From Candidatus Heimdallarchaeota archaeon (GTDB lineage Archaea > Asgardarchaeota > Heimdallarchaeia > Hodarchaeales > Hodarchaeaceae): DNA of 64,000 nt. Within the stretch, counting starts at the first letter, position 1. Each line of letters begins with the position of its first letter. The position numbers and the translations under genes were made by a program. The stretch is from assembly GCA_011364965.1 (NCBI GenBank), contig RDOB01000002.1:128001-192000 (forward strand), given 5' to 3'. Positions 23,070 to 25,481 of this stretch are shown piece after piece. The notes under the pieces are model-generated. The model searched no databases and was not told the DNA's origin. It saw only the letters and a list, made by a program, of their open reading frames with translations.

Positions 23070-25481
23070 GTGAATATAACATTGACTCTAGGATTAGATA
23101 CTCTTAATCTCACTCATCAAGAAAGTAAAGTATACATCACATTATTAGCACTCGGACCGTTGTCATTAGGGGAAATTATACAGCATACTGGATTTTCTCT
23201 CGATGATACAACCCAATGCATAGATGTGTTAAAAAATAAAGGATATTTACATGTGATTCCAGGAGTTGCAATTCGATATAGGGTAATTCTTCCACTGGAC
23301 GACTTGAAATCTTCAACTGAAGCAACTATCTCTAAAATGGAAGATTTAGCAGCTCAACTTGATGAACATATCTCTAAAAAATTAGGTGTAATTATTACCA
23401 AGTTAAGGGAAGAAGCTAAGAAAGTGAAGGATGGTGTTGCTCATTCTCAAGAAAATATAAATCAATCTGAAATGAAAGCAGAGAATGAAGTTGAAGCTCG
23501 CATAGCAAAGTTTTCACTAGATGTCGAAGAAAGCACTGGGCAAACAAAGCAAGAAATTTCTTCTACAATGGATGAGAAGAAATCTGAACACCAAAATCTA
23601 ATCGAGGGATTAGAAGATTCCTTTAAAATTGAATCCAATAGAATTAAAGACGGCCAACAAGCTGTTAATAAAAATCTAATGGATAAATTTCATTCTGGGT
23701 TAGATGAGTTAGTTACACAAGAATCAGAGAGAGTAAAATCTCTCACGGATGAACAAAATGATATTTCTGAAACAACTGGCAATTTGGTTGTCGAAGGCAT
23801 TGAAAATGTCCGTCAAGCTGTCAATCAAACCGGAACATCTCTCTTTAGCTCAATTGATCAGAGAAATGAGAGGTTAACAAGTTCTATTAATACAGCTAGT
23901 ACCGAAATTTCCACTGCAGTTTCTGAATTCTCTACTGAAAACCAAGAGAGAATCATCTCATCTTTAAAGACGTATAATGATAAAATCCAGCAACAGATTG
24001 GTATAAGCTCTAAAGAAGCAACAGATATCTTCTCTACAACAGGCGAAGAGGTTAAAACAAAAACAGCTGAAAGTGTTCAAAATCTTCAACAAGCCTTAAA
24101 TACTACTCTTAAAGAAACTCAGACACAAATAGCAGAGATATTGACAAAAACAAAGGAAAATTTTGAACAGAAGATTGTAGAAACACAAAATCAAATTGAA
24201 ACGAAGATGAATGAGCTAACTACAAACGTTCAAAACCAAACTGATGACAAAATTTTGAAAGTTATCACTAATTCTGAAACTATGTTTAAGGATTTTGCTC
24301 AAGAATCAGACTCAATGTTTGAAATCACACAGAATGAGGTTAATACCGCTTTCACTAATTTGGTGTCAACAAGTAGTGATAGCGTTACTAATATAAAAAA
24401 TCAATCTTTAACTGAGTTAAATCGAATTGTAGATGCTTTAAAAACAGAAGTAAAGCTTCAGATTGATAGTTTTAACGAAGCTTTGAAACCTCAAGAACTA
24501 AAAATCCGTGAGGAATTCTCTAATTTTAGAAAACAATTAAGTTTATCGCAAGATCAAGGTCTTGCGTCATTCAATCAAGTTATGACGGCTTTTAAAACTT
24601 CGATTGATCAAAAGCATCAGGAATTAAATGATTTAGTAAGTAAAGAGAGTCAGAGTCTTATTGAGAGTGTCAATCAATATTTAAAAAGCGTGGAAGAACA
24701 GCTTACTGGGTATGATTCAAGATATAGGGAAACTCTTGTTGATTCTGCAGTTAGAAATTCAGAAAAATTAATTGCACAAACTCGCGATATTCAAGAGCAA
24801 ATGAAATCTACTGTAGGAGAATTTAGCAAGATTGCCTCCGAAGAATTATCAATGATTGTTGAAGTGGTTACCCAGAGTGTCGATGCAGAAGTTAAAACCT
24901 TAGAGAATGAATTAACAGATTATTCCTACAAATTTAATGAAGTTACTCAAGCTAATCAAGAGATTTTTAGGAATTATCTTCATTCAATAGAGAAAATTGA
25001 TTCTTTAATTAAAGACACGAAACAACCTGTTGTTGAAACAGCTCCAATTGTGTCAAAAGAAGCAACTCTTACGTATGTAAAGGATATGTTCTCTCGAATA
25101 ACATCAGGGATTACTCTTCTAATTCCAAAAATAGAAGATGTTCCCATAGATTTAATTTTAGCAACAAAAACATCTCAAAGGGTCAGCTTGGTGACTATTT
25201 GTAAACCTGAAAAGGATAAGGACTTTCTGCAAAAATTGCTACAGAAACCTAACGTTAGAATCCGTGCAGTTGATCCTGTAAAATTCGAGGACGTTGATAA
25301 ATATATAGCTGCAGATCGAGATGGTGAAGAAGTGATTATTGGAGTAACAGAGGATTCTGGAGAAGTATTAGCAATTGCTAGCCTCGCTGATTCCTTTATC
25401 AAATTGATGGGAAAGATAGTGTTAGGAGATTATTTCCTAGCTCGTTCCCAAGAAATTCAACGCAGTGACTTAGGCCTATAA
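23070..25481 (+). CDS. TrmB-type HTH protein with about 570-aa helical/coiled-coil insert and C-terminal TrmB-like effector domain
   Basis: N-terminal LTHQESKVYITLLALGPLSLGEI...LKNKGY (TrmB HTH), long Q/E/S/T/K-rich helical centre, C-terminal NVRIR...IAADRDGEEVIIG. Confidence 0.75.
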   Translation: MNITLTLGLDTLNLTHQESKVYITLLALGPLSLGEIIQHTGFSLDDTTQCIDVLKNKGYLHVIPGVAIRYRVILPLDDLKSSTEATISKMEDLAAQLDEHISKKLGVIITKLREEAKKVKDGVAHSQENINQSEMKAENEVEARIAKFSLDVEESTGQTKQEISSTMDEKKSEHQNLIEGLEDSFKIESNRIKDGQQAVNKNLMDKFHSGLDELVTQESERVKSLTDEQNDISETTGNLVVEGIENVRQAVNQTGTSLFSSIDQRNERLTSSINTASTEISTAVSEFSTENQERIISSLKTYNDKIQQQIGISSKEATDIFSTTGEEVKTKTAESVQNLQQALNTTLKETQTQIAEILTKTKENFEQKIVETQNQIETKMNELTTNVQNQTDDKILKVITNSETMFKDFAQESDSMFEITQNEVNTAFTNLVSTSSDSVTNIKNQSLTELNRIVDALKTEVKLQIDSFNEALKPQELKIREEFSNFRKQLSLSQDQGLASFNQVMTAFKTSIDQKHQELNDLVSKESQSLIESVNQYLKSVEEQLTGYDSRYRETLVDSAVRNSEKLIAQTRDIQEQMKSTVGEFSKIASEELSMIVEVVTQSVDAEVKTLENELTDYSYKFNEVTQANQEIFRNYLHSIEKIDSLIKDTKQPVVETAPIVSKEATLTYVKDMFSRITSGITLLIPKIEDVPIDLILATKTSQRVSLVTICKPEKDKDFLQKLLQKPNVRIRAVDPVKFEDVDKYIAADRDGEEVIIGVTEDSGEVLAIASLADSFIKLMGKIVLGDYFLARSQEIQRSDLGL

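Follow-up and report, generated by a model that had tools for sequence, protein, structure and literature searches.

A TrmBL2-like protein with a long, predicted fold-back arm encoded within the smc-scpA-scpB cluster of a Hodarchaeales archaeon

What kind of protein is encoded by a long open reading frame (ORF) lodged between the kleisin and kite genes of an archaeal SMC cluster, and does it act together with the complex encoded around it? This question is raised by a 64,000-nucleotide stretch of DNA from Candidatus Heimdallarchaeota archaeon (Hodarchaeales; contig RDOB01000002.1, positions 128,001 to 192,000, assembly GCA_011364965.1), the whole of which is termed the window and whose G+C content is ~34% (AT-rich). 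The gene in question (23070..25481, forward strand), which occurs as one copy in the host genome, encodes 803 residues when read from GTG and is referred to here as the rod-protein gene. An original prediction made from the sequence had described a TrmB-like DNA-binding head and a TrmB-like C-terminal domain separated by a helical rod of roughly 570 residues, and had proposed a DNA-bridging factor that may cooperate with SMC rather than a sugar regulator.

The head is a TrmB-type winged helix (residues 10-73; 23097..23288, forward strand), which scored 30.6 bits against the Pfam family PF01978 with a cut-off of 25.6 bits, and the profile of the rod protein matched TrmBL2 and TrmB chains in PDB, where the winged helix reached TrmBL2 at an E-value of 5.6e-5. 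Sequence similarity to TrmBL2 is limited to this winged helix. The predicted TrmB-like C-terminal domain found no support in the sequence, as no match to PF11495 (Regulator_TrmB) was obtained even at E<=10, no other Pfam family was matched, and residues 640-803 gave no PDB sequence match to TrmB, TrmBL2 or any other entry; it was the structure that bore the claim out. When modelled separately, the C-terminal domain (residues 659-803; 25044..25478, forward strand) reached a predicted local distance difference test score (pLDDT) of 87 and a predicted template modelling score (pTM) of 0.81, and its structural matches assign it to the phospholipase D (PLD) fold. The model resembled TrmB (2f5t and 3qph) with a Z-score of 14.6, the root-mean-square deviation from 2f5t being 2.5 over 131 residues (TrmB residues 110-244), and TrmBL2 (5bpi and 5bpd) with a Z-score of 13.5 (TrmBL2 residues 123-264). 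Nucleases of the PLD fold came next with Z-scores of 11-13.5, trailing by as little as ~1-2 Z units. In the alignment of orthologues, residues 659-803 contain no invariant histidine and hence no HxK(x)4D motif, the local motif being T-K-(N/T)-(H/S)-Q-R.

The C-terminal domain ends at ~145 residues and aligns solely to TrmB residues 101-244, whereas the second, sugar-binding sub-domain of the TrmB effector region is absent, so that the protein should not be a sugar sensor, in agreement with the earlier statement that it is no sugar regulator. As modelled, the domain content is TrmBL2-like rather than TrmB-like. TrmBL2 (TK0471/PF0496; PDB 5bpd, 5bpi, 5box and 5bqt) is a nucleoid-associated TrmB-family protein of the Thermococcales, which shares with the rod protein the order of winged helix, helix and PLD-fold C-terminal domain and the lack of the sugar-binding sub-domain. 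TrmBL2, however, comprises ~260 residues with a short pairing helix, whereas the rod protein carries an insert of hendecad coiled coil that is ~561 residues long, and an arginine-bearing recognition helix in TrmBL2 contrasts with Asp/Glu in the rod family and a strongly acidic rod protein. The sugar-sensing TrmB of Pyrococcus furiosus (3qph and 2f5t) has a winged helix of the same family and an effector N-subdomain matching the C-terminal domain of the rod protein, which differs from it in having the inserted rod and in lacking both the second sub-domain and a PF11495 match.

The rod between the end domains was delineated by an AlphaFold2 model of the whole protein built on a 27-sequence alignment, in which a winged helix (16-72), a helix (77-357), a break (358-362), a second helix (363-637), a disordered segment (638-658) and an alpha/beta domain (659-803) follow one another. 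The mean pLDDT was 75, with values of 85-91 along the arms, and the pTM was 0.31; the ~561 helical residues come close to the predicted 570. Arm helix 1 (23298..24140), the predicted turn or apex (24141..24155), arm helix 2 (24156..24980) and the low-confidence linker (24981..25043), which carries a conserved 'P..QTAPI' stretch, all lie on the forward strand. The rod is high in Glu, Ser, Thr, Lys, Gln and Asn and contains one proline. When the hydrophobic residues of the single sequence were Fourier-analysed, no clear period was seen; it emerged only with alignment-averaged hydropathy, which displayed one dominant period of 3.66-3.67 residues (11/3) with negligible power at 3.5 residues. At this hendecad peak the normalised power of helices 1 and 2 was 35 and 41, respectively, and that of the rod as a whole (residues 77-637) was 71. 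Hydrophobic residues (Leu, Ile, Phe and Val) occupy three of every eleven positions in an a/d-e/h pattern, forming a narrow stripe of the coiled-coil type, and by this test of sequence periodicity the rod is a hendecad coiled coil. A tropomyosin-type long-period charge pattern was looked for in the rod and none was found. Across the 27 orthologues, with identity down to 39%, not a single indel occurs in residues 77-640 (564 columns), which indicates that the gene is real.

Whether the two helices fold back was addressed by correlating the smoothed conservation profile with its own mirror image at all possible centres, a procedure that uses neither model nor coordinates but draws on the same 27-sequence alignment as the AlphaFold input. 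A single sharp peak (r 0.68) was located at residues 359-360.5, with values elsewhere of at most 0.35 except on the flanks of the peak, whereas the best parallel offset reached r 0.39. This centre coincides with the AlphaFold turn at 358-362 and divides the rod into arms of matched length, namely 281 and 275 residues. Conserved helix-perturbing residues are mirrored as well, G243 and G255 of arm 1 having P474 and Q475 of arm 2 as counterparts, both pairs at 105-117 residues from the tip, which suggests a joint. With equal arms and a turn at ~360, the winged helix and the C-terminal domain would meet at one end, and the rod is modelled as a fold-back arm of two antiparallel helices of ~280 residues, ~42 nm long (280 x 0.15 nm).

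In a Foldseek comparison of the whole model, TrmBL2 ranked at the top, ahead of long hairpins that included chemoreceptors and Rad50; 478-757 columns were aligned to a methyl-accepting chemotaxis protein and to Rad50. Similar to SMC, Rad50 and chemoreceptors, the rod protein combines a head made of N- and C-terminal parts with a long antiparallel two-helix arm, in which conserved interruptions are mirrored in both strands. In contrast with SMC and Rad50, it has neither a hinge nor a zinc hook at the tip, its register is hendecad rather than heptad, and no ATPase family in Pfam or NCBIfam matched the protein (P0001) that could indicate an ABC-type ATPase head; the likeness to these hairpins is analogous, not homologous. 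Bacterial KfrA, TlpA and RacA likewise carry a winged-helix DNA-binding head on a long helical tail, which serves as a tether, scaffold or sensor. Their tails are parallel and dimeric, however, and they are not known to have a PLD-fold domain or to be related in sequence to the rod protein.

The rod protein represents a large family. A word-indexed search yielded 28 full-length orthologues of ~800 residues from metagenome-assembled genomes of Hodarchaeales/Heimdall-type Asgard archaea, together with one Freyarchaeota protein of 1302 residues; 27 full-length orthologues are 39-69% identical. An exhaustive profile search covering 1.84 billion representatives returned 1237 matches at E<=1e-3, of which 269 reached <=1e-10 and 59 reached <=1e-30. 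Both end domains stand at the protein ends in 86 of the top 148 matches, with total lengths of ~750-1900 residues, and rod lengths in the family range from 500 to 1650 residues. The named members are all from Asgard archaea (Heimdall, Hod, Loki, Hel and Frey), the family clusters in the ESM Atlas are all Asgard 'hypothetical proteins', and 63 of 83 species-level Heimdallarchaeia genomes contain a family match at E<=1e-10. Judged from these sequences, the family is Asgard-wide and appears to be derived from TrmB/TrmBL2. No published description of it was found in the searchable literature, and it is apparently undescribed so far.

On these grounds, roughly even credence is given to the reading that the rod protein is a structural strut or tether of fixed length, and not a regulator that senses a metabolite. 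Between the winged helix and the PLD-fold C-terminal domain, the short pairing helix would have been expanded into two length-matched helices of ~280 residues, whose unbroken 11-residue repeat would fold back at residue ~360 to form a rigid ~42-nm arm, while sequence analysis and modelling suggest that the end domains unite as a TrmBL2-like head. This head may be anchored to DNA or to a protein partner, and the joint (residues 241-280 and 441-480) and the tip (residues 320-400) could then touch another component or another copy at a set distance. The place of the gene in the smc-scpA/scpB1-scpB2 cluster would go back to an insertion, in antisense, that took place in the ancestor of a single Hodarchaeales genus, with the function of the family being independent of it. 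If this architecture is right, a widespread Asgard family of fixed-length rods, from ~40 nm to >100 nm, would be mounted on the head of a chromatin protein, a new kind of component with which the lineage ancestral to eukaryotes could organise its chromosome or cell.

Several points weigh against this reading. The function of strut or tether is deduced solely from shape, and the hairpin itself rests on AlphaFold (pTM 0.31, with an apex pLDDT of 52-66) together with the conservation symmetry. Gly and Pro are missing from the apex, which the hendecad phase crosses unbroken, so that a single continuous helix of ~84 nm retains some, though lesser, probability. DNA binding is uncertain too: judging from the sequence it is plausible, not assured, because the protein is acidic and the arginines of the recognition helix are replaced by Asp/Glu. 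The net charge amounts to ~-40, with ~-2 in the winged helix, ~-17 in each arm and ~-2 in the C-terminal domain. In an alignment to 5bqt, the two recognition-helix arginines of TrmBL2 correspond to Asp in the rod protein; among 106 remoter members of the family, positions 45, 46 and 52 are mostly occupied by Glu, Asp or Ser, and the family winged helix carries a net charge of -1 to -2. K57, the wing residue R69 and an R/K at position 61 are retained in the family. Accordingly, of the DNA-bridging rod that had been proposed, the rod shape stands, whereas bridging is less secure than had been assumed.

The foremost alternative to a strut with a cluster-independent function, unlikely as it is, regards the rod protein as a dedicated partner of Smc-ScpAB within one genus-level Hodarchaeales clade (g1), with its head on DNA or on the kleisin/kite; likewise unlikely is the role that follows, in which the SMC cluster would itself encode a roadblock or anchor, with an arm that positions, stalls or fixes the SMC complex. 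The synteny speaks for it: in all 19 g1 genomes having both scpA and scpB1, the rod-protein gene lies between them in antisense orientation, sharing a divergent promoter spacer with scpB1, although in one g1 genome two additional genes separate it from scpB1. In the deepest g1 branch (L010, L068 and L069), both flanks differ and smc lies away from scpA, and still the arrangement scpB2-scpB1-rod-scpA is retained. The closest structural relative provides a precedent, since Yamaura et al. (PMC11840125) reported for Thermococcus kodakarensis that Smc-ScpAB is stalled by TrmBL2, which also defines a domain boundary. By analogy, this roadblock may keep an SMC connection alive, without outweighing the comparative evidence.

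That evidence points the other way. The rod-protein gene is on the opposite strand and thus not co-transcribed, and in most g1 genomes ~20 kb around it are also collinear, which weakens the inference from synteny, as the linkage could be inertia. In the sister family (f2), a co-directional smc-scpA-scpB1-scpB2 operon is found without the rod-protein gene (L062:72-4711 and L063:240-5435), and rod homologues of 811 and 817 residues are encoded on other contigs; because this operon is compact and complete, the arrangement with two ScpB genes would be older than the rod insertion and independent of it. A GTPase gene is the divergent neighbour of the gene for P0037, the closest outgroup protein. 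In family f7, ScpB and two or three rod paralogues are located on separate contigs, and families f4-f6 have rod proteins and no ScpB at all. No smc or scp homologue lies within 7-9 kb of the family gene at 20 further Heimdallarchaeia loci or at the Loki, Frey and three other loci. All-against-all clustering of the neighbours of 28 loci revealed no common partner, the sole recurrent cluster being generic ABC-transporter ATPases. In the end-domain tree, the g1 copies group as one clade (support 96/93), which is nested within a set of unlinked relatives. Given this nesting and the intact sister operon, the simplest history is that, in the ancestor of g1, the rod-protein gene entered an ancestral smc-scpA-scpB1-scpB2 operon in antisense orientation.

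Lineage-wide linkage or co-occurrence with smc, scpA and scpB, such as an accessory subunit would display, was thus not found; the linkage is restricted to genus g1. Conservation of the neighbourhood with smc/scpAB, which had been put forward as a check, held inside this one genus-level clade and broke down at the sister operon, and the proposed cooperation with SMC retains the 19 of 19 linkage and the TrmBL2 precedent while losing the homologues scattered elsewhere without smc or scp. The rod-SMC link is lineage-specific at best. It is a rather improbable proposition that the strut was recruited in g1 as a Smc-ScpAB partner, namely as a boundary or anchoring factor that is attached to DNA or to the kleisin/kite and positions loop extrusion; the SMC operon encoding it would then belong to archaea that are among the nearest known kin of eukaryotes. 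Nevertheless, with the gene amid an SMC-kleisin-kite cluster and with TrmBL2 stalling SMC, the rod protein is a concrete candidate, open to testing, for a factor that positions SMC. Van Hooff et al. (bioRxiv 10.1101/2024.01.07.573240) described the SMC/kleisin/kite operons of Asgard archaea, and the searched passages of that work contain no mention of a rod-type gene.

A decidedly unlikely second alternative takes the rod protein for a scaffold or cytoskeletal spacer, in which the winged helix would bind a protein and the acidic rod would serve as a structural element of the Asgard cell. The winged helices of kite proteins, ESCRT-II and cullin offer an analogy as protein-binding modules, and the strict length of the rod, its strong negative charge with an acidic winged helix, the family-wide loss of basic recognition-helix residues and the lack of a conserved DNA-related neighbour across lineages would all suit such a spacer. 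The retained wing and flanking basic residues (K57, R69 and R/K at 61) do not, nor does the match of both end domains to a known DNA-binding chromatin protein. DNA-metabolism genes also recur, by raw occurrence, in several unrelated contexts of the family, including DNA ligase/SSB/RNase HII, MutS/MutL, PolX, a Dna2-like gene and SMC.

Returning to the locus, the divergent spacer bears on a third, very unlikely explanation, in which the rod protein would be an ordinary sequence-specific TrmB-family regulator of itself or of scpB1-scpB2, with the rod as a sensor, for instance of temperature as in TlpA. The spacer (22916..23081, unstranded), common to the rod-protein gene and scpB1, contains a TATA-like box TTAATTTATAC and a Shine-Dalgarno sequence AGGAAGTGA. 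A TrmB winged helix and a divergent position beside a candidate target are classic for regulators, and the upstream promoter block, including the TATA-like box, is conserved in one orthologue subclade. On the other hand, no conserved palindrome was found in the spacer, the protein lacks both the effector sub-domain and a basic recognition helix, and a ~560-residue coiled coil free of indels, which persists across Asgard lineages with unrelated neighbours, is unlike a local regulator. The same spacer affects the reading of the start codon. Orthologues begin at an ATG located 8 nt past the conserved Shine-Dalgarno sequence, a position where this ancestral start has changed to ACA here and is followed by TTG at 23082, while the GTG at 23070 chosen by the ORF finder falls within the Shine-Dalgarno sequence itself; for these two reasons the true start is probably the TTG at 23082, giving 799 residues, and the database copy (P0006) is 799 residues long.

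Hardly credible, finally, is an apolipoprotein- or perilipin-like giant amphipathic helix lying on a lipid surface and tethering, for instance, the chromosome to the membrane, since its 11-residue periodicity, its composition high in Ser, Thr, Gln and Asn, the hendecad phase continuous through the apex and the matches to Pfam Apolipoprotein (PF01442) and to ApoA-IV in PDB (E 2e-11) are set against a Pfam score of 52.1 bits under a 90-bit cut-off, a narrow 3/11 stripe whose Leu, Ile, Phe and Val residues resemble a coiled-coil core, the absence of a lysine-lined interface, and a conservation symmetry and paired helices at pLDDT 85-91 that favour a hairpin. The exchangeable apolipoproteins (ApoA-I, A-IV and E) have the same 11/22-residue amphipathic periodicity, which explains the sequence matches, and the likeness is most likely convergent. 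The choice between a coiled coil and an apolipoprotein-like bundle, left open by the original prediction, thereby falls to a predicted hairpin coiled coil.

The genes around the rod-protein gene were laid out as originally described, with its end 2 bp from the scpA stop codon and a divergent region, 154 bp in length, towards scpB. On the reverse strand lie scpB1 (22355..22915) and its kite paralogue scpB2 (21097..22335), both of which match PF04079 above the cut-off, and on the far side are scpA, encoding a probable kleisin of 295 residues (25484..26371), and smc next beyond it (26382..29963; 1193 residues, TIGR02169 at 614 bits), also on the reverse strand. The 295-residue product in the kleisin slot has no Pfam match, with SMC_ScpA missing it, and the top PDB match of its seven-sequence profile is a weak one (E 0.19) to 4i99_C, the C-terminal winged helix of ScpA from Pyrococcus yayanosii. 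In the sister lineage, a homologue of this protein fills the kleisin slot of the co-directional smc-X-scpB1-scpB2 operon, and the ORF is taken as a probable, strongly diverged kleisin. Neighbours of ~295 residues in the distant-homologue loci L005, L008 and L009 were considered as counterparts by size and were rejected as unrelated to this ORF (P0002).

Some further features of the locus and the family deserve mention. The stop codons of the rod-protein gene and the kleisin ORF are 2 bp apart (window 25479-25486), as opposed to 7-88 bp in orthologues, which leaves no space for terminators, so that the two transcripts probably overlap. The C-terminus of ScpB2 (window 21097-21420, reverse strand) consists of three near-perfect tandem acidic units of ~19 residues, EEEEEKDEESETAEVEPEA, and ScpB2 orthologues range from 393 to 440 residues in length. 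An Rfam search of the window gave no match. In a neighbouring Roadblock/GTPase cluster, a coiled-coil protein of 395 residues (window 33142-34329, reverse strand) is encoded, whose orthologues match Apolipoprotein; it was rejected as a relative of the rod, as the similarity (E 4e-4, 24% identity, many gaps) could be explained by composition alone. It also displayed no similarity to the second rod of a distant locus (L061:4049-11353), where a family member of 1450 residues is encoded last in a run of three co-directional genes, after a 568-residue AAA/STAND-like ATPase (a winged helix and a weak AAA_16 match) and then a 408-residue hendecad rod, with MutL and MutS directly downstream. Single-sequence queries with this ATPase and the second rod found no match in the host genome, which is 87% complete, so that either may still occur there. 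In family f4, a Dna2-like nuclease-helicase of 1008 residues with a terminal RING-type zinc finger (L055:11710-14736), an unusual fusion in an archaeon, is encoded two genes away from the rod gene.

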